Shown: piece after piece, positions 1-12,516 of the stretch
Numbering within the stretch: the first letter of the stretch is position 1
Layout: the number at the start of each line of letters is the position of its first letter
Virus record (IMG/VR): IMGVR_UViG_2537561727_000005
Coordinates: 1 to 12,516 of that record
Strand: one strand, 5' to 3'
Length of the DNA: 12,516 bases
Source of the DNA: a virus
Taxonomy: Duplodnaviria > Heunggongvirae > Uroviricota > Caudoviricetes
The notes under the pieces: model-generated
The model's input: the letters and a program-made list of their open reading frames with translations, nothing else
Told to the model about the DNA's origin: nothing
Databases searched by the model: none
Made by a program: the position numbers and the translations under genes

Positions 1-87
1 TGTCCATTAAAAATGATGGACATTATTTTTGTAGAGCCGGAGGAAACAGACCAGACGGTTTAAATGAGCCGGTTACTTTATCATCGC

Positions 88-146
88 CATAAAACAAAAC
101 TCGCCGTAGCGAGTTCAGATAAAAGAAAACCCGCACTCGGCGGGTT
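88..146 (-). terminator. Two tandem rho-independent terminators ending the leftward operon
   Basis: Minus-strand hairpins: 7-bp stem 128-134/140-146 (loop 135-139) followed by U-tract from 118-127; 7-bp stem 98-104/109-115 (loop cgta) followed by interrupted U-tract from 88-97. Confidence 0.55.
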
Positions 147-425
147 CGCATTCGTTCAAATTGCGTTTACTTCTTGGCGTTCTGTTCATCCATATCGATA
201 TACCATGGGTTGCTTCCCTTGGGCATGTTTAACGACTGCTCGCGATAGTATCTGATGCGCTCCATGAAATACTCGCGTGAGTGCTCAGGTTGCTCTCATG
301 ATACCTGCTCAGTGATAACAGGTATGTTAAGGCGCTCTCTGTACTCCATGCCTGATGCTGCAAGGTCAACGTTTACCTTGTTCTGTTTTTCTTTCGATTT
401 CTCGGCGATGTTATGCCTGACATTG

Positions 426-668
426 TCAACCCGCCTCCTTCTGAACATAACGGTTATAAATCAGTCCCTGAGGGCCATAAGGAAGCGGGATGTGCAACTC
501 CTCTGGTTCAGAAACTATCCATTCCCCGGCCATCTCCGCTGGAGAGGTAATGATAAGTTGTTTGCTAATAAAAGGACCACTCCTCTCAACAACAAGCTTA
601 CCATCTTCATTAATAAAAGCTTGGATGTCAGGTGTGCTTCCACACTTGGTGATGCAGCGTTTGAACAT
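426..668 (-). CDS. Small Cys/His-containing hypothetical protein (80 aa from ATG 668; 94 aa if ATG 710), at the position lambda ea8.5 occupies
   Basis: ORF in track; ATG at 668 has a GGGGGGA Shine-Dalgarno 6 nt upstream, ATG at 710 has none; last gene of the leftward operon before the terminators. Confidence 0.5.
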   Translation of the reverse strand: MFKRCITKCGSTPDIQAFINEDGKLVVERSGPFISKQLIITSPAEMAGEWIVSEPEELHIPLPYGPQGLIYNRYVQKEAG

Positions 669-794
669 TTTGTGTCCCCCCATTTTATGGACGGGGTAAT
701 TATAACACATTGAAATATAGTAATATTTGACGTAGATTTCTTTTGATCTATAAGCGATTTTTTAATGCTTTTAAGTTATAAATACTTGTTTTCA

Positions 795-1370
795 TCACCC
801 ATCTTGCTGCGGTGCTACTATTGAAAAGTACTCACACCCTTTAGCCCAAATAGTTTTGATAGTTGTCCAACTGACTGGAACCTTGATTTCGATTCTTCCG
901 CTGCCGTCACAAGTTTCGCAATCATCATCACCAAAGCATTCCGGGCAGCTTATAAACGTAGTTTCTGAAAATTCACCGGATAGCACACCCTTAGCGCCGT
1001 TCTCAGCGGTTAGTTTCTTCGGCACTATAACCCAACCATCCGGAGTTACCGGAGAATTGCCATTTATATCGAAGTTTGGCTCTGCGTCCTGAACCAGGAG
1101 GATGTAACCATTCTTGGCAGTATCAAGTTCTAACGCCTCGGTGACGGTACCGAAATAGCGATTACCTAAATCCGCATCACAAGTGCTTACATCAATGGAA
1201 ACCTCCATGCCTTCGATTAATTCTGGCAAGTTGTAAGTTTGGCTTACAGGTTCTGCTCCCAGTGATGCCAGTGCAATTCGTGCCAGTTCCATTTGTTCGC
1301 CACGAGTAAGCCCGTTTTCAAGCGGATTTTTAATGAACAATTCAATACGTTCTTTGGTAATAGTGGTCAT
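795..1370 (-). CDS. Hypothetical 191-aa protein with C-terminal tandem CxxCxG / CxxCxGxG (DnaJ-type) zinc-ribbon motif
   Basis: ATG at 1370 with AAGGA 7 nt upstream; starts 10 nt after stop of upstream gene; motif CPECFGDDDCETCDGSG read directly in translation. Confidence 0.75.
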   Translation of the reverse strand: MTTITKERIELFIKNPLENGLTRGEQMELARIALASLGAEPVSQTYNLPELIEGMEVSIDVSTCDADLGNRYFGTVTEALELDTAKNGYILLVQDAEPNFDINGNSPVTPDGWVIVPKKLTAENGAKGVLSGEFSETTFISCPECFGDDDCETCDGSGRIEIKVPVSWTTIKTIWAKGCEYFSIVAPQQDG

Positions 1371-1380
1371 TTGTTAGTCC

Positions 1381-2136
1381 TTAAACTGCTAGTTGCAATT
1401 GCATTTCAAAGCGGTCGCGTTGTTCACAATACGCAAGAGAACCAGGGCTATTGTGTGCCTCAATCCGTTCTACCATTAATGCTGCGCGTGTCTCTTTACT
1501 TGCAGGTGCATAAGCCCCAGACCAGGCTTTATCAATACCGATGTTTCGAGCGACGTTCGTACTATCTGCGCTGGCTAAGGGTAATTTTGTGAATATCAGC
1601 GGATTTAACATGCGCAATCCATGTAGTTTCGTAACCGGCTGACCATGCCCATCAACAATGTGACGAATCAGGTCTTTCATTCTGGCTACCGCAAGAGTTG
1701 GGCGCTTTACGTCATAGTCGCCACAACTACCGATAGCCACTCGCGGAAACTCATTGCACAAATGAATAAATCGCTCGTCACTTTCATTCATGTGCCACAC
1801 TGGAACGCCAGCTAGTTTTCCGTGAGGCCACTCATTCAGAAGCGCATCATTTTCCTCCTCTCCGCCATCAATAACATCCGGGATAATGGCAAAATCGAAT
1901 CCTGGGTGATTCTTCCAGCGAGCAACAAACTCGTAGTAATCGCTCCAGTCGATTTTGTTTTTGCCAGCTGCTTTCCAGGCGGTGAATGCACCGTTGTCCA
2001 GCGCGAACGACTGACAGTATTCAGCCGCGAGATTGATCTGGCCTGAATGCGCAAAACTGATAAACGCATGTCGCCCTTTCCATGCTCTCATTGCGCACGT
2101 ATCAGGAGTAATAGGCCCACCGTGGTAGTGAATCAT
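1381..2136 (-). CDS. Hypothetical 251-aa enzyme-like protein; N-terminal H-x-H (MIHYHGG) plus later His/Asp clusters (FAHSG, WHMNESD, VDGHG) suggest a metal-dependent hydrolase or phosphoesterase, family unassigned
   Basis: Track ORF 1381-2178; preferred start ATG 2136 has AGGAG 6 nt upstream and sits 2 nt after stop of upstream gene (2138-2140); no P-loop, no DPPY/NPPY, no CxCxxC...H motif seen. Confidence 0.75.
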   Translation of the reverse strand: MIHYHGGPITPDTCAMRAWKGRHAFISFAHSGQINLAAEYCQSFALDNGAFTAWKAAGKNKIDWSDYYEFVARWKNHPGFDFAIIPDVIDGGEEENDALLNEWPHGKLAGVPVWHMNESDERFIHLCNEFPRVAIGSCGDYDVKRPTLAVARMKDLIRHIVDGHGQPVTKLHGLRMLNPLIFTKLPLASADSTNVARNIGIDKAWSGAYAPASKETRAALMVERIEAHNSPGSLAYCEQRDRFEMQLQLAV

Positions 2137-2137
2137 C

Positions 2138-2545
2138 TCACTCTCCTTTGATGCGAATGCCAGTAGCGCGGATTGCATCGATGACTTCAGAAACTTTGTA
2201 TGCCATTACCGTTTGGTAATCATCGTGAAAATCTGTTCGATGAAGCATGCTGCTACGTTCCGGGAGCAGTATTTCCCGCGCTTCCAGTTCTGCAATGCGC
2301 TTTTTTGCTGCTTCCAGTTCATCCAGTAATTCCAGCACGGTAGCCGGATTAGCCTTGGCAACAAAATCCCGGACTGGCTTACAATCAATCTCCGCAATGG
2401 GTTGATACGATGTGTAGCCATGCTGTCTTGTATAACTACCGTGACGAATAACGAAAAAATCACCATTTATTTTTTTAGCCTGCCACTTATCTTCACCGGC
2501 TTTCTCTGCCGCTTCACGCAGTGCCTGAGAGTTAATTTCGCTCAC
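2138..2545 (-). CDS. Ead/Ea22-like early protein (135 aa) with coiled-coil segment LELLDELEAAKKRIAELEA
   Basis: GTG start at 2545 overlapping stop of upstream gene (GTGA), GAGAGG 6 nt upstream; family assignment from memory of lambdoid early-region proteins. Confidence 0.65.
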   Translation of the reverse strand: MSEINSQALREAAEKAGEDKWQAKKINGDFFVIRHGSYTRQHGYTSYQPIAEIDCKPVRDFVAKANPATVLELLDELEAAKKRIAELEAREILLPERSSMLHRTDFHDDYQTVMAYKVSEVIDAIRATGIRIKGE

Positions 2546-2763
2546 TTCGAACCTCTCTGTTTACTGATAAGCTCCAGATCTTGCTGGCAACTGGCACAAG
2601 TCCGACAACCCTGAACGGCCAGTCGTCTTCGTTCATCTATCGGATCGCCACACTCACAACAATGAGTGGCAGATATAGCCTGGTGGTTCAGGCGGCGCAT
2701 TTTTATTGCTGTGTTGCGCTGTAATTCTTCAATTTCTGATGCTGAATCAATGATGTCTGCCAT
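2542..2763 (-). CDS. TraR/DksA-family C4 zinc-finger protein (73 aa)
   Basis: CCECGDPIDERRRLAVQGCRTCASCQ gives a CxxC-17-CxxC spacing typical of DksA/TraR zinc fingers; common in lambdoid early-left regions. Confidence 0.75.
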   Translation of the reverse strand: MADIIDSASEIEELQRNTAIKMRRLNHQAISATHCCECGDPIDERRRLAVQGCRTCASCQQDLELISKQRGSK

Positions 2764-2810
2764 CTTTCATTAATCCCTGAATTGTTGGTTAATACGCTTG
2801 AGGGTGAATG

Positions 2811-2839
2811 CGAATAATAAAAAAGGAGCCTGTAGCTCC
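2811..2839 (-). terminator. Weak terminator-like hairpin between the exo block and the accessory operon
   Basis: Minus strand GGAGC-tacag-GCTCC (2825-2839) followed by TTTTTTATTATT (2811-2824); only a 5-bp stem. Confidence 0.3.
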
Positions 2840-2861
2840 CTGATGATTTTGCTTTTCATGT

Positions 2862-3143
2862 TCACCGTTCCTTAAAGACGCCGTTCAACATGCCGATCGC
2901 CAGGCTTAAATGAGTCGGTGTGAATCCCATCAGCGTTACCGTTTCGCGGTGCTTCTTTAGTACGCTACGGCAAATGTCATCGACGTTTTTATCCGGAAAC
3001 TGCTGTCTGGCTTTTTTGATTTCAGAATTAGCCTGACGGGCAATGCTGCGAAGGGCGTTTTCTTGCTGAGGTGTCATTGAACAAGCCCCATGTCGGCAAG
3101 CATAAGCACACAGAATATGAAGCCCGCTGCCAGAAAAATGCAT
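2862..3143 (-). CDS. Lambda orf61-like small early protein (71 aa if start at ATG 3077, MTPQQENALRS...)
   Basis: Position and sequence resemble lambda small ORF between ea22 and exo, from memory; start ambiguous. Confidence 0.55.
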   Translation of the reverse strand: MHFSGSGLHILCAYACRHGACSMTPQQENALRSIARQANSEIKKARQQFPDKNVDDICRSVLKKHRETVTLMGFTPTHLSLAIGMLNGVFKER

Positions 3144-3153
3144 TCAGTGGTTG

Positions 3154-3345
3154 TCATACCTGGTCTCTCTCATCTGCTTCTGCTTTCGCCACCATCATTT
3201 CCAGCTTTTGTGAAAGGGATGCGGCTAACGTATGAAATTCTTCGTCTGTTTCTACTGATATTGGCACAAACCTGACTCCAATTTGAGCGAGGCTATGTGC
3301 CATCTCGATACTCGTTCTTAACTCAACGGGAGATGCTTTGTGCAT
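3154..3345 (-). CDS. Lambda orf63-like small early protein (63 aa)
   Basis: ATG 3345 with GGGGAG 4 nt upstream; sequence [23 protein letters not shown]... matches my memory of lambda orf63. Confidence 0.6.
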   Translation of the reverse strand: MHKASPVELRTSIEMAHSLAQIGVRFVPISVETDEEFHTLAASLSQKLEMMVAKAEADERDQV

Positions 3346-3500
3346 ACAGCTCCCCGTTTATTATTTATCTCCTCAGCCAGCCGCTGTGCTTTCAGGGGAT
3401 TTCTGATAACAGAAAGGCCGGGAAATACCCAGCCTCGCTTTGTAATGGAGTAGACGAAAGTGATCGCGCCCACCCGGATATTATCGTGAGGATGCGTCAT
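3318..3500 (-). CDS. Lambda orf60a-like small early protein (60 aa, [17 protein letters not shown]...)
   Basis: ATG 3500 overlaps exo stop as ATGA; sequence matches my memory of lambda orf60a. Confidence 0.6.
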
Positions 3501-4177
3501 CGCCATTGCTCCCCAAATACAAAACCAATTTCAGCCAGTGCCTCGTCCATTTTTTCGATGAACTCCGGCACCATCTCGTCAAAACTCGCCATGTAATTTT
3601 CATCCCGCTCAACCACGACATAATGCAGGCCTTCACGCTTCATTCGTGGGTCATAGTTGGCAAAGTACCAGGCATCTTTTCGCGTCACCCACATGCTGTA
3701 CTGCACCTGGGCCATGTAATCCGACTTTATGGCCTCGAAACCACCGAGCCGGAATTTCATGAAATCCCGGGAGGTAAACGGGCATTTCAGTTCAAGGCCG
3801 TTGCCGTCACTGCATAAACCATCGGGAGAGCAGGCGGTGCGCATACTTTCGTCGCGATAGATGATCGGGGATTCAGTAACATTCACGCCGGAAGTAAACT
3901 CAAACAGGGCTCTGGCGTCGTTCTCGTACTGTTTTCCCCAGGCCAGCGCCTTAGCATTAACTTCCGGAGCCACACCGGTGCAAACCTCAGCCAGCAGGGT
4001 GTGGAAGTAGGACATTTTCATGTCAGGCCACTTTTTTCCGGAGCGGGGTTTTGCTATTACGTTATGAACTTCTGAAGCTGTGATGACGCCGAGCCGTAAT
4101 TTGTGCCACGCATCATCTCCCTGTTCGACAGCTCTCACGTCGATCCCGGCACGCTGCAGGATAATGTCCGGTGTCAT
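3497..4177 (-). CDS. exo: Lambda exonuclease (Red-alpha, Exo), intact 226 aa
   Basis: Translation near-identical along its full length to lambda Exo (MTPDIILQR...GFVFGEQWR). Confidence 0.97.
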
Positions 4178-4368
4178 GCTGCCACCTTCTGCTCAGTGGC
4201 TTTCTGTTTCAGGAATCCAAGAGCTTTCACTGCTTCGGCCTGTGTCAGTTCTGACGATGCGCGAATGTCGCGGCGAAATATCTGGGAACAGAGCGGCAAT
4301 AAGTCGTCATCCCATGTTTTATCCAGGGCGATCAGCAGAGTGTTAATCTCCTGCATGGTTTCATCGTT
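4174..4368 (-). pseudogene. bet: bet (Red-beta) C-terminal remnant, about 65 codons; N-terminal roughly 200 codons deleted
   Basis: Translation ...NDETMQEINTLLIALDKTWDDDLLPLCSQIFRRDIRASSELTQAEAVKALGFLKQKA..QKVAA matches lambda Bet C-terminus; upstream in-frame sequence is unrelated and hits a stop at 4420-4422. Confidence 0.9.
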
Positions 4369-4370
4369 AA

Positions 4371-4832
4371 GCAGCAGAGAAGAAACGACGACGAGAGGAG
4401 CAGAAACAGAAAGATAAACTTAAGATTCGAAAACTCGCCTTAAAGCCCCGCAGTTACTGGATTAAACAAGCCCAACAAGCCGTAAACGCCTTCATCAGAG
4501 AAAGAGACCGCGACTTACCATGTATCTCGTGCGGAACGCTCACGTCTGCTCAGTGGGATGCCGGACATTACCGGACAACTGCTGCGGCACCTCAACTCCG
4601 ATTTGATGAACGCAATATTCACAAGCAATGCGTGGTGTGCAACCAGCACAAAAGCGGAAATCTCGTTCCGTATCGCGTCGAACTGATTAGCCGCATCGGG
4701 CAGGAAGCAGTAGACGAAATCGAATCAAACCATAACCGCCATCGCTGGACTGTCGAAGAGTGCAAGGCGATCAAGGCAGAGTACCAACAGAAACTCAAAG
4801 ACCTGCGAAACAGCAGAAGTGAGGCTGCATGA
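4371..4832 (+). pseudogene. ninG: ninG C-terminal remnant, about 150 codons with no start codon; N-terminal roughly 50 codons deleted
   Basis: Frame translation [17 protein letters not shown]...[11 protein letters not shown] matches lambda NinG C-terminal portion; in-frame stop at 4368-4370. Confidence 0.85.
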
Positions 4833-5494
4833 ATATCTACGAAAGAATTGATGGCAGCAAATACCGAAATATTTGGGTAGCTGGCGACCTGCACGGATGC
4901 TACACGAACCTGATGAACAAACTGGATACGATTGGATTCGACACCAAAAAAGACCTGCTCATCTCGGTTGGCGATTTGGTTGATCGCGGTACAGAGAACG
5001 TCGAATGTCTGGAATTAATCACATTCCCCTGGTTCAGAGCTGTGCGTGGAAACCATGAGCAAATGATGATTGATGGCTTATCAGAGCGTGGAAACGTTAA
5101 TCACTGGCTGCTTAATGGCGGTGGCTGGTTCTTTAATCTCGATTACGACAAAGAGACTCTGGCTAAAGTTCTTGCCCATAAAGCAGAAGAACTTCCGTTA
5201 ATCATCGAACTGGTGAGCAAAGATAAAAAATATGTCATTTGCCACGCCGATTATCCTTGTAACGAATACGAATTTGGAAAGCCAGTTGATCCTCAGCAGG
5301 TAATCTGGAACCGCGAACGAATCGGCAACTCACAAGACGGGATCGTGAAAGAAATCAAAGGCGCGGACACGTTCATCTTTGGTCATACGCCAGCAGTGAA
5401 ACCACTCAAATTTGCCAACCAGATGTATATCGATACTGGCGCAGTGTTCTGCGGAAACCTCACATTGATTCAGGTACAGGGAGAAGGCGCATGA
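4829..5494 (+). CDS. Lambda-type Ser/Thr protein phosphatase (orf221/NinI family), intact 221 aa
   Basis: Near-identical to lambda phosphatase incl. GDLHG and GNHE metallophosphatase motifs; ATG overlaps ninG stop (ATGA). Confidence 0.95.
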
Positions 5495-5623
5495 GACTCG
5501 AAAGCGTAGCTAAATTTCATTCGCCAAAAAGCCCGATGATGAGCGACTCACTACTGGCCACAGTTTATTGGTTTTCGTAACTGAGTCATTTTATTATTTT
5601 ATTGCAACTTTTAATCTTTTATA

Positions 5624-5672
5624 GTGCGAAATAAATGGAGCTGGCATTCATTTCGCACTTTATGTTTTTGTT
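5624..5672 (+). terminator. Rho-independent terminator downstream of the phosphatase gene
   Basis: 10-bp stem AGTGCGAAAT (5624-5633) / ATTTCGCACT (5650-5659), 16-nt loop, followed by TTATGTTTTTGTT. Confidence 0.5.
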
Positions 5673-5705
5673 GGACTTATGTTATTTTGATTGAATTCAA
5701 TTCAG

Positions 5706-6665
5706 TTAAAAAAAGAAGGTGATTGCTCCATTTATAAATGAATAGTCATCCCCTGTCTTGAATTCTGATGTTACTTTATTAAATGCTAGTGTGAAGGCTA
5801 CAGGTGCATACCCAATTGTTGCGCCAACTTGATATTCATCAACAGTTTTGTTTAGCGATACTGTTGTTTGTTTCGTCTGTATTGTTTTTCCTTCGAGAGT
5901 ATAGTTGCGATTGACATCTCGTCTTTCCATACCTGCAAAAATCTTGTATTTGAATCCGCTTGTATCGGACATATGCATTAAACCACGGGGAGCCAGCAGA
6001 CCAAAGCCATTATCCGAATTGAAGGTTTTATCATTACCAATGGCAATGGTTGCGCCATATGCTACATATTGAAATAAGTTTCCAGTAACAGCAGAAACTT
6101 CAGGGTATAATCCAACATTAGCACCTAAAATATCCATACTTGGTGTCATGGATAGCATCCCTTTTACAGTATAACCGTAGCGATTCTCTATTTGATCATC
6201 CCATGCATGATATTTTTCTGCCCCAATAATCTCATGAGCTTTATTTTGTACTTTCTGACCGCCTGCGTCGGGGCCAACAACACCTATGTCAGTACCTAAT
6301 CGATAGCGAATCCAGTCATTCGCAAGGGAGTTCCATTCAATACCAGTGTGAGTGTATGCACTAAAAGCTCTGTCTCCAGTTACAGCTGTGTTGTGTCTTT
6401 TATTACTGCCTGATGGAGAGTAAATATCTTGCGCAATATGGAGAGATAATTGGCTCGAGTCTGAGATATCGTGGCTATATCCCAGAAATAAGCCTTGTGA
6501 GTAATCATCTCTGTTTTCATGTTTATTGCCATAAATATCATTAAGTATTGGTTGAAACTTCCCTGCATCATCATTTGCTAATGATAATGCAAGGCTGTTC
6601 GCGATAGCTGAACACGTGGTAAATGACAGAGCAATAAAGACGCCAGCGATGACACTTTTTTTCAT
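5706..6665 (-). CDS. lpxR: Outer-membrane lipid A 3'-O-deacylase LpxR-like (319-aa precursor, 22-aa signal peptide, C-terminal aromatic beta-barrel signature ...AITFFF)
   Basis: Signal peptide with AIA cleavage motif; mature numbering places N9, D10, S34, K67, Q118 and H122 where I recall the Salmonella LpxR active-site residues; 319 aa equals Salmonella LpxR precursor length; gene is markedly AT-rich. Confidence 0.8.
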   Translation of the reverse strand: MKKSVIAGVFIALSFTTCSAIANSLALSLANDDAGKFQPILNDIYGNKHENRDDYSQGLFLGYSHDISDSSQLSLHIAQDIYSPSGSNKRHNTAVTGDRAFSAYTHTGIEWNSLANDWIRYRLGTDIGVVGPDAGGQKVQNKAHEIIGAEKYHAWDDQIENRYGYTVKGMLSMTPSMDILGANVGLYPEVSAVTGNLFQYVAYGATIAIGNDKTFNSDNGFGLLAPRGLMHMSDTSGFKYKIFAGMERRDVNRNYTLEGKTIQTKQTTVSLNKTVDEYQVGATIGYAPVAFTLAFNKVTSEFKTGDDYSFINGAITFFF

Positions 6666-7140
6666 ATGTTATTGTCTTCCTTTTTTTTGAATGGTGCGCG
6701 TATTTTACATACATGAGTTTGTAATACAAGGTGCGTAATCAATATGATGTTTTATAATTGCGTGAGACAATTGATTTATTCGTTTTTTATTGCGGTTTTT
6801 ATTATCTTTTAATGTAACAGTGTTTTTATTAAGTGTGTTTGCGTGGTGTTTTATGTTTTTTATAATTTTTATTTTATTAAATTTAAATGCATTAGTAATG
6901 GCTATTCTATATAGCAATATAAGAACTGTTACAAAAAAAGGGGGGGCAATTACAGGTAGTTATGGATGATGAGTGAAACAGATATTGGAGAACCGGGGAA
7001 TGAATGATGTCTGAGTCTTATATATCAGAACTCCTTCGCTGTCGCTGGGGGCTCCTGTGCTTATGTCGTTTCCCCGATTCGGTTTTGAACGATTACCGAA
7101 TGTTGAAGAATTATGCCAAAATATAGAAAGGATTTACTGC

Positions 7141-7830
7141 ATGAATACCCAATATTTACAGTATGTTCGTGAGCAACTTATGGCAGCTACTGCTGACTTG
7201 AACGGAGCAACGAAAGGCCAGCTCGAAGCCTGGCAGGAGCATGCACAATTTGATACTGGTACATACAAACGAAAGAAGCCGCGCATTCTGGATGTGGTAA
7301 CTGGCAAGATGATTACGCTGGATAATACGCCGACTTCCGGTAAGCAGTCGTACGCAAAAGGTTCATCCATTGCTTTGGTCAGCCCGGTTGAATTCTCAAC
7401 CTCTTCATGGCGCCGCGCGGTTTTGTCTCTCGATGAACATCAGAAAGCATGGTTGCTTTGGTGTTACAGCGAAAGCGTTCGATGGGGGCATCAGGTCACC
7501 ATAACGCAATGGGCATGGAGCGAGTTTAAGGATTTGTTAAGTAACAGAAAAATTGCAGGTAAGACACTGGATCGCCTGAAGACGTTAATCTGGCTGGCTG
7601 CACAGGATGTGAAGAGCGAACTTGCAGGGCGTGAGGCCTATGAATACCAGACACTGGCATCATTGGTGGGAGTGACAACAAAAAACTGGTCCGAGACATT
7701 TACTGAACGCTGGGTTGCAATGAAGCACATTTTTCTACAGCTTGATAGTGATGCTTTATTGCTTGTGACGAGAACACGTTCAAAACAAAAGGCAGCATTT
7801 TTACAGCAAAATATTGCAAAACTGGATTAA
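7141..7830 (+). CDS. Late-gene regulator at the Q position (putative Q-like antiterminator), 229 aa from ATG 7141
   Basis: Track ORF 7057-7830 starts at GTG; ATG 7141 has AAGGA 8 nt upstream; function inferred only from synteny (between nin region and lysis genes), I do not recognise the sequence. Confidence 0.5.
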   Translation: MNTQYLQYVREQLMAATADLNGATKGQLEAWQEHAQFDTGTYKRKKPRILDVVTGKMITLDNTPTSGKQSYAKGSSIALVSPVEFSTSSWRRAVLSLDEHQKAWLLWCYSESVRWGHQVTITQWAWSEFKDLLSNRKIAGKTLDRLKTLIWLAAQDVKSELAGREAYEYQTLASLVGVTTKNWSETFTERWVAMKHIFLQLDSDALLLVTRTRSKQKAAFLQQNIAKLD

Positions 7831-7875
7831 AAGCCATATACTTCATGCAAATTTGGTATGTTGTAAAAAATGTAT

Positions 7876-7902
7876 AAACCCGCTGCCGAGTGGGTTTTTT
7901 TT
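7876..7902 (+). terminator. Terminator-like hairpin 46 bp downstream of the Q-position gene (possible tR'-like element)
   Basis: AAACCC (7876-7881) / GGGTTT (7892-7897), 10-nt loop, followed by T-run to 7902. Confidence 0.4.
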
Positions 7903-8041
7903 ATGCCCCGAGTTGTACTTGTACGGTAAACATGCTGGCTGCTATGTAATAGAGTTTTTTTAGCCTGTAACCTCTTGACTGCATTGAATTGCTTTTGTTA
8001 TGAGTTGTAAGCCAATGTTATCATCTTGTATTGGGGTGGTT

Positions 8042-8758
8042 ATGAAGGATGGTGCGCTGCTCAGGAGTTCTTCACTTTTTATTGCCTACATGGGATGCCT
8101 TGGATGGGGGAGTGCTTATTTCTATGGATGGGGTACTTCTTTTTACTACGGCTTCCCATGGTGGATTGTAGGTGCAGGTGTTGATGATGTTGCCAGAAGT
8201 TTATTTTTTGCAGTTATCGTCATTGCTATATTTCTTATCGGTTGGGGTATTGGTGTTGTATTCTTTTTCGCAGTGAAAAGAAAACATTCTATGCAAGAGC
8301 TAAATGTATTTCGCCTTTATTTTGCTGTGGAATTATTGTTTGTGCCGGCAATTATTGAGTTTTCTATATTGAGACAAAAGATTCAGGTACCTCTTTTGCT
8401 ACTGTCAGCAGCGATTGCGCTGGCGGTTACAATTTCGATAAGATCTTATGGGCGATTTTTATCGGTATCATGCTTCTATGATAAGCCATTTATAAAAAAA
8501 CATTTTTTTGAGATTGTGATGATTGCTTTTGTGGCATATTTCTGGCTTTTTTCATTTCTGACAGGATATTACAAACCACAGTTTAAGAAAGAATATGAAA
8601 TGATTAATTATAATGATGGTTGGTATTATGTTCTTGCTCGTTATGATAATTGTCTGGTTTTGTCTACTTCTTTCAATGCAGGTAGTAAAAGGTTTGTCAT
8701 TTATCAATCAGCACAAGATAAGAATCTTCAGGTTGATATTGTAAGGACCAGAATTTAA
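8042..8758 (+). CDS. Polytopic inner-membrane protein of unknown function (238 aa from ATG 8042; about 5 hydrophobic helices rich in Trp/Tyr/Phe, roughly 70-aa soluble C-terminal domain)
   Basis: Long ORF with GGGGTGG upstream of ATG 8042; strongly AT-rich relative to flanking phage genes; hydrophobic segments read from translation. Confidence 0.75.
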   Translation: MKDGALLRSSSLFIAYMGCLGWGSAYFYGWGTSFYYGFPWWIVGAGVDDVARSLFFAVIVIAIFLIGWGIGVVFFFAVKRKHSMQELNVFRLYFAVELLFVPAIIEFSILRQKIQVPLLLLSAAIALAVTISIRSYGRFLSVSCFYDKPFIKKHFFEIVMIAFVAYFWLFSFLTGYYKPQFKKEYEMINYNDGWYYVLARYDNCLVLSTSFNAGSKRFVIYQSAQDKNLQVDIVRTRI

Positions 8759-9137
8759 TTGGCTGCATAAATAATATTTTAAGTTGCAAGTTGGCTATTC
8801 GTAGGAATAGAACCTTAGGCATGCTGAATGCGTTTCCTGAACATTGTTTTATAAACTGTGTCTGCTTGCTGTTGTGATCCTGCTTTTAGTGATGGTGATG
8901 ATGGATTTCACCAGCAGGATAATGTTGGTACTGACTGATGGCGCTCTGGTCTGCGGCATTGTGGTATTGCTGTGGCCGATGATGAAAGAACAGAATGAAT
9001 AATTCTTGACTTTTTTGTTTACTGTTTATTAAAAAATCAACCGCATGGTGAATCCTCCTTGGAGGGGCTAAATGATCGAGTTTTAAGGGCACGTAGCGAG
9101 TTCTGTTTGATCATTGCAGAACTTAGCGGGAGGCGCC

Positions 9138-9248
9138 ATGCGTACATCACTAATGTTATTTCCTTCTATCATTTTCCTTGTGAGTTCTGGCTGCGCATGG
9201 CGCGGCCTTTTTTTTATGACCTGCCACTGGCAGATGGTCATCCTGTGA
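9138..9248 (+). CDS. Candidate small hydrophobic peptide (36 aa, MRTSLMLFPSIIFLVSSGCAWRGLFFMTCHWQMVIL)
   Basis: ATG with GGGAGG Shine-Dalgarno 4 nt upstream; single predicted TM segment; not in ORF track (below 60 aa). Confidence 0.3.
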   Translation: MRTSLMLFPSIIFLVSSGCAWRGLFFMTCHWQMVIL

Positions 9249-9391
9249 TTTGATTCCGGTTCCGGCTTTTTAACTCTGTTCCTGTACACGGGAGAAATTC
9301 TATGTCGATTAATCGTTATGATATTGGTTACAAGAAGTACCACGTATTGTGTTGAGATAGAAAGCATGGTGCCAGAGGTAAATGCAGCAGC

Positions 9392-9444
9392 ATAATAAAA
9401 AAGAGCCAGCGCAGAAGAGAACGGGTAAAAGAGTCTGCGCTGGC
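9392..9444 (-). terminator. Strong rho-independent terminator (minus strand)
   Basis: Perfect 11-bp GC-rich stem GCCAGCGCAGA (9405-9415) / TCTGCGCTGGC (9434-9444), then U-tract TCTTTTTTATTAT (complement of 9392-9404). Confidence 0.75.
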
Positions 9445-9489
9445 GTGGGGATATTCCCCGTGGAGAAATGATATGTAACACACATCGGG
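9392..9489 (-). ncRNA. Candidate small RNA of about 98 nt with its own promoter and intrinsic terminator
   Basis: Minus-strand promoter TTGACA (9523-9518), 16-bp spacer, TATAGA (9501-9496); no credible ORF between predicted start (about 9489) and terminator; internal stem-loop GGGGA-ATA-TCCCC. Confidence 0.4.
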
Positions 9490-9495
9490 AACCTT

Positions 9496-9543
9496 TCTAT
9501 ATAAACATTATCATTATTGTCAATCATAACAGTCAGGTATTAT
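9496..9543. promoter_or_regulatory. Back-to-back divergent promoters with overlapping -35 hexamers (leftward for the sRNA, rightward toward the holin; rightward one is a candidate late promoter)
   Basis: Plus strand TTGTCA (9517-9522), 15-bp spacer, TATTAT (9538-9543); minus strand TTGACA (9523-9518), 16-bp spacer, TATAGA (9501-9496). Confidence 0.4.
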
Positions 9544-9560
9544 GACGTTTATGCATCAGG

Positions 9561-9595
9561 GCCATCAGGAATTAACTGGTGGCTTTTTATTGTTG
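9561..9595 (+). terminator. Rho-independent terminator just upstream of the holin (tR'-like)
   Basis: 8-bp stem GCCATCAG (9561-9568) / CTGGTGGC (9576-9583) with one G-U pair, 7-nt loop, followed by TTTTTATTGTTG. Confidence 0.6.
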
Positions 9596-9623
9596 TCAGC
9601 TTCCGGATAACGGGAGACGGGGT

Positions 9624-9839
9624 ATGTACCAGATGGAAAAAATAACAACAGGTGTGTCATACACCACGTCAGCGGTGGGGACGGGATACTGGCTACTGCA
9701 GTTGCTGGACAAAGTCTCCCCATCCCAGTGGGTGGCAATAGGCGTATTGGGTAGCTTGGTGTTTGGCTTGCTGACGTATCTGACAAACCTTTATTTCAAG
9801 ATTAAAGAAGATAAGCGTAAGGCTGCGAGAGGTGAATAA
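9624..9839 (+). CDS. S: Class II holin of the phage-21 S type (pinholin), 71 aa, with dual-start motif M-Y-Q-M (holin/antiholin)
   Basis: Close match to my memory of S21/EssD (…[51 protein letters not shown]); GGAGACGGGG upstream of ATG 9624; track ORF extends to GTG 9579, which lies inside the upstream terminator. Confidence 0.9.
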
Positions 9840-10117
9840 TGTCGCCATCATTACGCAAGGCTGTTGCTGCTGCTATTGGTGGTGGGGCTGTTGCCATAGC
9901 GTCTGTGCTCATCACTGGTCCGAGTGGTGACGATGGCCTGGAAGGTGTCAGCTACATACCATACGAAGATATCGTTGGCGTATGGACTGTATGTCACGGA
10001 CACACCGGAAAAGACATCATTCCCGGTAAAACGTATACCGAAGCAGAATGCAAAGCCCTCCTGAATAAAGACCTTGCCACGGTCGCCAGACAAATAAACC
10101 CGTACATCAACGTCGAT
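9839..10117 (+). pseudogene. R: SAR endolysin (phage-21 R type lysozyme) N-terminal fragment, about 93 codons, C-terminal half deleted
   Basis: N-terminal SAR segment ([20 protein letters not shown]) and catalytic Glu/Asp/Thr region match R21 from memory; homology stops at ...NPYINVDI where terminase A sequence begins. Confidence 0.85.
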
Positions 10118-10418
10118 ATATCGAACAGTCAGGTTAACAGGCTGCGGCATTTTGTCCGCGCCGGGCTTCGCTCACTGTTCAGGCCGGAGCCACAGACCGC
10201 CGTTGAATGGGCGGATGCTAATTACTATCTCCCGAAAGAATCCGCATACCAGGAAGGGCGCTGGGAAACACTGCCCTTTCAGCGGGCCATCATGAATGCG
10301 ATGGGCAGCGACTACATCCGTGAGGTGAATGTGGTGAAGTCTGCCCGTGTCGGTTATTCCAAAATGCTGCTGGGTGTTTATGCCTACTTTATAGAGCACA
10401 AGCAGCGCAACACCCTTA
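10118..10418 (+). pseudogene. A: Terminase large subunit gpA N-terminal fragment (codons about 3-100), fused in frame to the endolysin fragment
   Basis: [100 protein letters not shown] matches lambda gpA N-terminus. Confidence 0.9.
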
Positions 10419-10784
10419 TTCCAGGTTGTCCTGGGGGCTGCCGCCATTGCCGGATCATTCTTTACCGCCGGAGCCACCCTTGCAGCATGGGGGGCAGCCA
10501 TTGGGGCCGGTGGTATGACCGGCATCCTGTTTTCTCTCGGTGCCAGTATGGTACTTGGTGGTGTGGCGCAGATGCTGGCACCGAAAGCCAGAACTCCCCG
10601 TACACAGACAACGGATAACGGCAAACAAAACACGTATTTCTCCTCACTGGATAACATGGTTGCCCAGGGCAATGTTCTGCCCGTTCTGTACGGTGAAATG
10701 CGCGTGGGGTCGCGGGTGGTATCTCAGGAAATCAGCACGGCAGACGAAGGGGACGGTGGTCAGGTTGTGGTGATTGGTCGCTGA
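10419..10784 (+). pseudogene. I: Tail assembly protein gpI C-terminal fragment (about 120 codons), out of frame with the preceding gpA fragment
   Basis: [48 protein letters not shown]...GQVVVIGR matches lambda gpI C-terminus; stop at 10782-10784. Confidence 0.9.
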
Positions 10785-10802
10785 TGCAAAACATTTTATG
10801 TG

Positions 10803-10830
10803 AAACCGCCTGCGGGCGGTTTTGTCGTTT
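10803..10830 (+). other. Hairpin in the I-J intergenic region (terminator-like or RNA structure)
   Basis: 8-bp stem AAACCGCC (10803-10810) / GGCGGTTT (10815-10822), loop TGCG, followed by TGTCGTTT. Confidence 0.35.
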
Positions 10831-10841
10831 ATGGAGCGTGA

Positions 10842-12516
<1,675 letters not shown>

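Follow-up and report, generated by a model that had tools for sequence, protein, structure and literature searches.

What does the minus strand encode between the late-promoter region and the lysis cassette of the prophage in IMG/VR record IMGVR_UViG_2537561727_000005? Positions 1 to 12,516 of this record (the window hereafter, with positions counted from its first nucleotide) are a defective lambdoid prophage of pathogenic Escherichia coli. Public genomes carry a 132-amino-acid (aa) "hypothetical protein" here (ECs_0817 / E2348C_1013 / WP_012578864.1), and an initial annotation of the window had proposed a leftward, non-coding regulatory RNA of about 100 nucleotides (nt) at 9392-9489. We found that the leftward small RNA (sRNA) is EcOnc32, which is already on record but is functionally uncharacterised and mis-annotated as a coding sequence (CDS). 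Reading the sequence alone had therefore recovered a genuine, highly abundant Hfq-bound sRNA that annotation hides under a spurious protein, and one that is among the top Hfq ligands in both enterohaemorrhagic (EHEC) and enteropathogenic (EPEC) E. coli, without a described function. It is probable, in our judgement, that EcOnc32 is an Hfq-dependent, trans-acting base-pairing sRNA, a diverged paralogue of Esr41 and a moron-slot gene whose best target is entC. New here are the link between the EHEC and EPEC data sets, the apparent Esr41 paralogy, the relation to the slot of PasA and PasC, an entC target recovered in two strains with a defined seed, and a Fur-box lead.

Identity of the leftward RNA in published data

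The window was 100% identical to O157:H7 DNA, as was the 156-nt gene in O157:H7 genomes, and it was 99.85% identical to prophage PP4 of EPEC strain E2348/69 (record coordinate = window + 1051217). ECs_0817 of Sakai prophage Sp3 (901266-901664, minus) corresponds to window 9083-9481, from which we derived that the Sakai coordinate equals window + 892183. With this offset the peak named EcOnc32 in the Hfq cross-linking and analysis of cDNA (CRAC) experiments, Sp3 901574-901662(-) (Tree et al. 2014, Mol Cell 55:199; PMC4104026, Table S2), maps to window 9391-9479, with the same sequence, coordinates and strand as published. EcOnc32 was reported to have a predicted Rho-independent terminator, to pass in 5/5 Hfq-CRAC data sets and to give a ~112-nt Northern band (PMC4104026). 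Its CRAC peak area (6.5e7, vs 7.8e7 for AgvB1, the most often recovered unannotated sRNA) was the second-highest among the EcOnc RNAs listed for EHEC (PMC4104026). The published record of EcOnc32 consists of coordinates, abundance and size only (PMC4104026); we found no main-text mention of it in the literature searched, and a literature search for the locus tags returned nothing relevant.

In EPEC the same RNA is filed under the spurious CDS name E2348C_1013. EPEC RNA-seq gave E2348C_1013 a base mean of 2064 and a log2 fold change of -2.9 in an hfq deletion (adjusted p = 1e-23). In EPEC RIL-seq (ligation and sequencing of interacting RNAs) its fragments lie at 1060613-1060672(-), i.e., window 9396-9455, with a fraction of 1.0 as the second RNA (RNA2) of chimeras in both growth conditions and a longest U tract of 6, and the RNA takes up ~808,000 of 18.2 million fragments (~4%). 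Eight partners were recorded in total, with 0 sRNA interactions; because 4/8 are intergenic region (IGR) or 3' untranslated region (3'UTR) RNAs, the EPEC authors did not place it in their sRNA list. The 3' boundary of the sRNA in both RIL-seq and the cross-linking, ligation and sequencing of hybrids (CLASH) data is window 9396. These published data, obtained on identical or near-identical DNA, demonstrate the transcript, its approximate size, Hfq binding, Hfq-dependent stability, the 3' end and ligation to the entC 5'UTR in two pathotypes. With an intrinsic terminator and U tract, Hfq binding and Hfq-dependent abundance, the RNA has the attributes of an Hfq-dependent sRNA, and the proposal of a ~100-nt non-coding prophage regulator is borne out by the CRAC peak, the ~112-nt band and the Hfq dependence in EPEC. 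We also considered HnrS (EcOnc10-12, 66 nt) and svsR as possible identities and ruled both out, as they are other RNAs at other positions.

Promoter, fold and family of EcOnc32

A pattern scan of IMG/VR returned 70 loci, which we collapsed into variant types A, B and C, the window being of type A. All three types have a three-hairpin architecture and an invariant CAUUUCUCCAC stretch. The window copy has the following features, all on the minus strand:

9518-9523, minus: -35 hexamer TTGACA of the sRNA promoter P2, read directly in the sequence
9496-9501, minus: -10 hexamer TATAGA of P2, 16-nt spacer from the -35, read directly
9507-9536, minus: alternative upstream promoter P1, CTGACT-18-GATAAT, overlapping P2, listed by a generic scanner
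9500-9518, minus: Fur-box-like AATAATGATAATGTTTATA across the sRNA promoters, a 15/19 match to the consensus GATAATGATAATCATTATC
9397-9489, minus: sRNA transcript EcOnc32 (5' part of "E2348C_1013"/"ECs_0817"), ~93 nt, or 104 nt if the start is at 9500
9470-9486, minus: 5' hairpin GAUGUGU/ACAUAUC, 7 bp with loop GUU, from the predicted fold
9460-9475, minus: seed region CAUAUCAUUUCUCCAC, invariant in types A, B and C
9460-9469, minus: anti-Shine-Dalgarno (anti-SD) core AUUUCUCCAC, predicted to be single-stranded
9447-9459, minus: second hairpin GGGGA-AUA-UCCCC, from the sequence and the predicted fold
9397-9444, minus: intrinsic terminator with an 11-bp stem, an 18-nt CU-rich loop and a U6 tract, from the sequence and the predicted fold

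The TTGACA, 16-bp spacer and TATAGA that the initial annotation had named are present as it described them, although the promoter lies just outside the interval 9392-9489 that it had given. The -35 TTGACA is unchanged across types A, B and C, and it stands at the aligned position in the promoters of Esr41, PasA and PasC too. As the -10 of P2, type B has TATAAA and type C keeps TATAGA, and the spacer sequence differs among variants. The promoter hexamers are thus conserved in all variants. Since TATAGA has no T at position 6 of the hexamer, P2 was not listed by the scanner and its -10 is weaker than the word "consensus" implies. The register of the listed P1 reads CTGACC-18-TATCAT in type B and CTGACC-18-TATAAT in type C. 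By homology to Esr41, transcription would start at 9489-9486 and give an RNA of 90-93 nt; a P1 start near 9500 would give a 104-nt RNA, nearer to the ~112-nt Northern band.

The 15/19 Fur-box-like site at 9500-9518 is the best in the whole window, and 4.5% of shuffled windows hold any equal site. The genuine Fur box of entC has the same crude score of 15/19, and the corresponding scores are 15/19 in variant B and 14/19 in variant C; by the same consensus scoring the Esr41 promoter holds no comparable Fur-box-like site. The sRNA was highly abundant in two low-iron media, MEM-HEPES (CRAC) and DMEM (the "activating" RIL-seq condition, 900 vs 304 fragments), which is consistent with the Fur lead. 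We hypothesize a putative iron (Fur) control of the sRNA promoter.

A 105-nt stretch of the locus has a fold of -34.9 kcal/mol, whereas 200 dinucleotide shuffles gave -18.2 +/- 2.8 (z = -5.9, 0/200 as good). Its terminator stem is perfect, pairing GCCAGCGCAGA (9444-9434) with UCUGCGCUGGC (9415-9405), and is followed by UC and then U6 (9402-9397); the generic scanner did not list it because the 18-nt loop exceeds its 8-nt limit. Both the very strong terminator with a perfect 11-bp stem and U-tract and the GGGGA-ATA-TCCCC stem-loop (9459-9447) described initially are present on the minus strand, whereas the 5' hairpin was absent from that description. In the 5' hairpin, 4/7 pairs are changed on both sides between EcOnc32 and Esr41; the second hairpin is kept in type C and in Esr41 with G-C to G-U changes, and across variants the terminator has several G-U changes and, once, a compensatory replacement of G-C by A-U. 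Across the model-guided alignment, standard pairs filled 94.1% of pair cells, vs 31-53% when the partners were slid, and compensatory changes on both sides were found in 5 pairs. The Esr41 counterpart of the seed region is CAUUUUCUCCAU.

An Rfam scan at gathering thresholds found no match in the window, and the relation to Esr41 was visible only in an E-value scan, in which the Rfam Esr41 model (RF02676) matched 9395-9484 end to end with 32.3 bits (E = 5e-4). The gathering score of this family, 102 bits, was not reached, whereas the genuine Esr41 of island SpLE1 scores 108.6. We built a covariance model, R1, from the variants of this RNA alone, without Esr41. Model R1 scored 112.6 bits on 9397-9486 and recovered Esr41 at 30.4 bits (E = 4e-5), while its matches to PasA and PasC covered only the terminator (E = 0.05-0.35; PasC 0.064, PasA 0.35). 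As the Rfam Esr41 model and model R1 detect each other's sequences, we treat EcOnc32 as a diverged Esr41 paralogue that does not belong to the curated Rfam family. The RNA occurs in about 11% of complete E. coli genomes, mostly EHEC and EPEC, and 563/602 carrier genomes are at least 99% identical.

Predicted pairing with entC and the readings of the locus

The EPEC RIL-seq data contain ~1,200 chimeric fragments of this RNA. Among its partners the entC 5'UTR has 263 chimeras (odds ratio 14, p = 4e-165), with a peak at 555724-555772 that spans the entC start codon at 555766; other partners are the rpoS leader (537), the IE2 RNA (72) and the dnaK 5'UTR (28). In EHEC, an RNase E-CLASH hybrid joins the entC ribosome-binding site (RBS) to ATATCATTTCTCCACGGGGAAT, the hybrid read consisting of the entC leader up to AUGGAUAC and then AUAUCAUUUCUCCACGGGGAAU, with the seed region included. 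The seed CAUAUCAUUUCUCCAC (9475-9460) pairs with entC UGUGGAGGAUGAUAUGG, from the Shine-Dalgarno (SD) sequence to the start codon, over 15 bp with one bulge. This duplex has a predicted energy of -21.3 kcal/mol, vs -7.9 +/- 2.2 for shuffled targets (0/500 as good). EcOnc32 thus has seed complementarity to a target site ligated in vivo in the case of entC. The seed also pairs with the dnaK RBS (GUGGAGA) at -13.3 kcal/mol (P = 0.002), and duplex prediction restricted to the seed region found no complementarity in the rpoS leader or the IE2 RNA. When duplexes with the RIL-seq partners were predicted without this restriction, the results were uninformative, the signal being clear for entC and dnaK only with the restriction to the seed.

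We propose that in the lysogen the RNA would be transcribed leftward from its sigma-70 promoter and ended by its own intrinsic terminator, whose hairpin and U tract would load it onto Hfq as one of the most abundant ligands. The predicted single-stranded anti-SD AUCAUUUCUCCAC between the first two hairpins would then pair with the ribosome-binding sites of host mRNAs, the best candidate being that of entC, the first gene of enterobactin synthesis, and dnaK a weaker one. Such pairing would occlude the ribosome-binding site with the help of Hfq and block translation, and we infer that EcOnc32 represses entC translation. A bolder version is tentative and, we think, doubtful as it stands: a Fur-repressed prophage sRNA, induced by iron starvation, could shut down enterobactin synthesis by pairing with the entC SD and start codon and so rewire host iron acquisition. 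If this were true, the promoter-proximal Fur site would couple entC shutdown to the iron status of the lysogen, and iron acquisition might shift, e.g., toward haem or other uptake routes, as proposed for the paralogue Esr41. If confirmed, EcOnc32 would give attaching-and-effacing E. coli a second regulator of iron acquisition that is encoded by a prophage.

Several observations weigh against the reading of EcOnc32 as an Esr41-like sRNA acting on entC. The Rfam Esr41 score (32 bits) is far under the gathering score (102), Esr41 is the only sequence that contributes compensatory changes, the alignment itself having been fitted to the model, and sequence diversity is low, given the near identity of those 563 of 602 carriers. 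The -10 TATAGA is without the conserved final T, and the predicted 93 nt fall short of the ~112-nt band. The partners are few (8, half of them CDS or 5'UTR) for an RNA so abundant on Hfq, and neither the rpoS leader nor the IE2 RNA, its two most frequent or IGR-type partners, has a seed match. The proposed function rests on ligation data and predicted pairing.

Four other accounts of the locus were considered. They require two neighbouring features:

9043-9215, plus: convergent partner sRNA PasD1/EcOnc13, STnc100-like, with a terminator at 9189-9207
9624-9839, plus: phage 21-type holin gene, divergent from the sRNA (Pfam Phage_holin_2_1, E = 1e-32)

That the region encodes the 132-aa protein annotated by the Prokaryotic Genome Annotation Pipeline (PGAP) (WP_012578864.1 / ECs_0817 / E2348C_1013), with the hairpins incidental, is a reading to which we give almost no credence. 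The open reading frame (ORF) 9083-9481 on the minus strand does exist and is annotated in RefSeq genomes. However, it starts inside the 5' hairpin of the sRNA and crosses two terminators, the Hfq-bound RNA covers just its first ~90 nt, it has no Pfam family above threshold, and only 27-36 aa of it are left in types B and C as well as in the phage Evi copy, which is 98% identical but has an additional T in the U tract that interrupts the frame. We rejected the coding reading on the ground that the frame is broken in every variant, and the initial annotation was right to dismiss the listed minus-strand ORFs (9309-9527 and 9083-9481) for running through the hairpins. Equally implausible is that the sRNA is the antitoxin of a type I toxin-antitoxin pair, with a 36-aa hydrophobic peptide at 9138-9248 as the toxin, an analogy that had initially been offered on condition of read-through. 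The ORF at 9138-9248 does encode a hydrophobic peptide and has GGGAGG four bases upstream of its ATG, but this supposed small-peptide gene falls within the validated sRNA PasD1/EcOnc13, of which it forms the 3' half, and that RNA terminates (terminator 9189-9207, also listed by the generic scanner; 3' end ~9215) before the stop codon is reached. The apparent SD, GGGAGGC(A/G)CC, is the conserved loop of the STnc100 structure, a frameshift in PasD2 cuts the ORF to 14 aa, and in STnc100-type partners the "peptide" is unrelated. As the ORF lies inside PasD1 and is frameshifted, and as PasD1 and EcOnc32 do not overlap, the type I analogy fails, and the locus is a convergent sRNA pair.

The remaining accounts accept the RNA and dispute its role. 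EcOnc32 could be a cis-antisense regulator of the phage late transcript that damps accidental expression of holin and lysis genes in the lysogen: a Q-antiterminated or leaking rightward RNA would be perfectly complementary to it, and convergent transcription would collide as well. The gene keeps its place upstream of the S21-type holin gene, divergent from it and downstream of Q, with 156-157 nt between the sRNA seed and the holin start in nearly all of the ~75 loci that extend far enough. In addition, some variants lie immediately downstream of and antisense to stx2B, and Tree et al. (PMC4104026) reported that sRNAs form convergent pairs 3' of PR' and that AsxR is antisense to the stx2 transcript. 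Yet the sRNA gene is 100% identical in the window although the lysis cassette there is destroyed, so a cis-antisense effect cannot explain its retention in this prophage, and hundreds of cryptic prophages have retained the gene as well. The terminated sRNA overlaps no other RNA, the 3' end of PasD1 being ~180 nt off, and its recorded partners are trans-encoded host mRNAs. We regard a cis-antisense role as unlikely to be the main one, but it could coexist with a trans role. Less likely again is that EcOnc32 occupies Hfq as a competitor RNA or acts as a sponge rather than repressing specific mRNAs. This would suit an RNA with ~4% of EPEC fragments and the second-highest listed EcOnc CRAC area, yet only ~1,200 chimeras and 8 partners, half of them IGR or 3'UTR, and the anti-sRNAs AgvB and AsxR occupy the equivalent slot. 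Against it stand the 0 sRNA interactions in EPEC RIL-seq, the absence of any resemblance to AgvB or AsxR in sequence or by model (nothing matched at E up to 10), and an entC pairing that is long, specific and found independently in two strains. A trans-acting, base-pairing EcOnc32 with entC as its best target remains the reading we favour.

The prophage slot and its known occupants

The sRNA gene lies in the "moron" slot, between the Q/late-promoter region and the lysis cassette. Besides PasD1 and the holin gene, the following features of the window bear on this position:

5706-6665, minus: LpxR (Pfam)
7057-7830: antiterminator Q (Pfam)
8844-9002: DUF3927 peptide (Pfam)
9345-9395, plus: last ~15 codons of a nanS-p type sialate esterase gene, surviving as a 3'-end remnant with its stop at 9393-9395 and translating to VEIESMVPEVNAAA and a stop
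9839-10618, plus: lysozyme N-terminus (PF00959) fused to a terminase gpA ATPase fragment (PF05876) (Pfam)

PasD1 is NC_011601 1060260-1060432(+), which maps to window 9043-9215, and its 3' end is ~180 nt from that of EcOnc32. The Rfam STnc100 model scored 37.7 bits over 9013-9218 (gathering score 47; E = 2e-6), and at other loci the convergent partner is a full-scoring STnc100 (130-149 bits). Convergent sRNA pairs 3' of PR' have been described where Sp3 and other prophages have their moron site (Tree et al. 2014; PMC4104026), and the present locus matches this pattern. The esterase C-terminus, for comparison with the remnant, reads VEIESLVLEINAPAA and a stop, and window 9327-9412 aligns at 81-82% to an esterase 3' end plus the PasC terminator. 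From the remnant and this alignment we conclude that EcOnc32 occupies the slot of PasA and PasC, and the same sequences suggest that an esterase moron may have been deleted between PasD1 and the leftward sRNA. Type C copies lie directly after a full-length esterase gene, as do PasA and PasC, and the variants near stx2B (Stx2 prophages L009 and L010) are convergent with a full-scoring STnc100. Among these, the promoter and the 5' hairpin are gone from the L010 copy, and the L009 copy is mutated in its seed (CAUUUAUCCA).

Other observations concern the surroundings. The region 9839-10784 (+) is a scrambled lysis/late region in which the fusion ORF is followed by an apparent C-terminal part of an ORF like lambda tail protein I, and we regard it as the deletion scars of a cryptic prophage. 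At the end of the Q gene, and overlapping it, is a promoter-like TTGCAA-17-TATACT (7814-7842, +), which is followed by a terminator-like hairpin and T run at 7876-7897; judging by position and motif, these could be the late promoter PR' and a short terminated leader, a StxS-like RNA. Another terminator-like hairpin on the plus strand (9558-9586), with 11 pairs followed by TTATTGTT, separates the sRNA promoter from the holin start codon. In prophage PP2 of E2348/69 (L003 2767-2852, -), a second terminator, GCCAGCG...CGCUGGC-U7, directly follows the esterase stop codon; its position is that of the 3' end reported for PasA's minor form of 236 nt, and it is homologous to the terminators of EcOnc32 and PasC.

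Among known systems, EcOnc32 (Tree 2014; PMC4104026) is the same gene, with no sequence difference. Esr41/EcOnc14, an EHEC sRNA, is encoded on island SpLE1, whereas the RNA of the window is in the moron slot of a lambdoid prophage. The two have in common the TTGACA -35, a 5' hairpin, a single-stranded UUUCUCCA anti-SD stretch, a GGGG/CCC(C/U) hairpin, a GCCnGC...GCUGGC terminator, the U tract and Hfq binding. They differ in the terminator loop (18 nt here vs ~7 in Esr41), in the sequence of the 5' hairpin, and in the extended entC pairing, which is specific to EcOnc32 (-21.3 kcal/mol vs -13.7 for Esr41). Iron-related targets occur on both sides, Esr41 repressing chuA, cirA and bfr and EcOnc32 contacting entC; fliC is also among the genes that Esr41 regulates.

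AgvB and AsxR (Tree 2014) hold the equivalent position, as leftward members of a convergent pair downstream of the late promoter, and they too are very abundant on Hfq. They are 51-60 nt long, with another sequence and a conserved 3' 42 nt, compared with ~93-112 nt here, and they mimic the mRNA targets of core sRNAs, whereas EcOnc32 has no recorded sRNA partner; we rejected membership of their families (RF02702/RF02703), which gave no match at E up to 10. PasA and PasC of EPEC (Pearl Mizrahi 2021; Zhu, Shabalina & Storz 2026 preprint) have the same slot and leftward orientation, between the esterase/moron and the holin gene. They share with EcOnc32 the TTGACA -35, the GCCAGC...GCUGGCU6-7 terminator and the downstream flank, but their RNA bodies and seeds are unrelated to its own, and we rejected membership of their family because the alignable parts are limited to the -35, terminator and flank. 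The 2026 preprint (Zhu, Shabalina & Storz) appears to register the element studied here only as "Esr41 hits near PasD". The comparison clarifies how these descriptions fit together: EcOnc32, those Esr41 hits, PasA and PasC, and elsewhere AsxR/AgvB, are alternatives to one another as leftward genes in a single conserved prophage slot.

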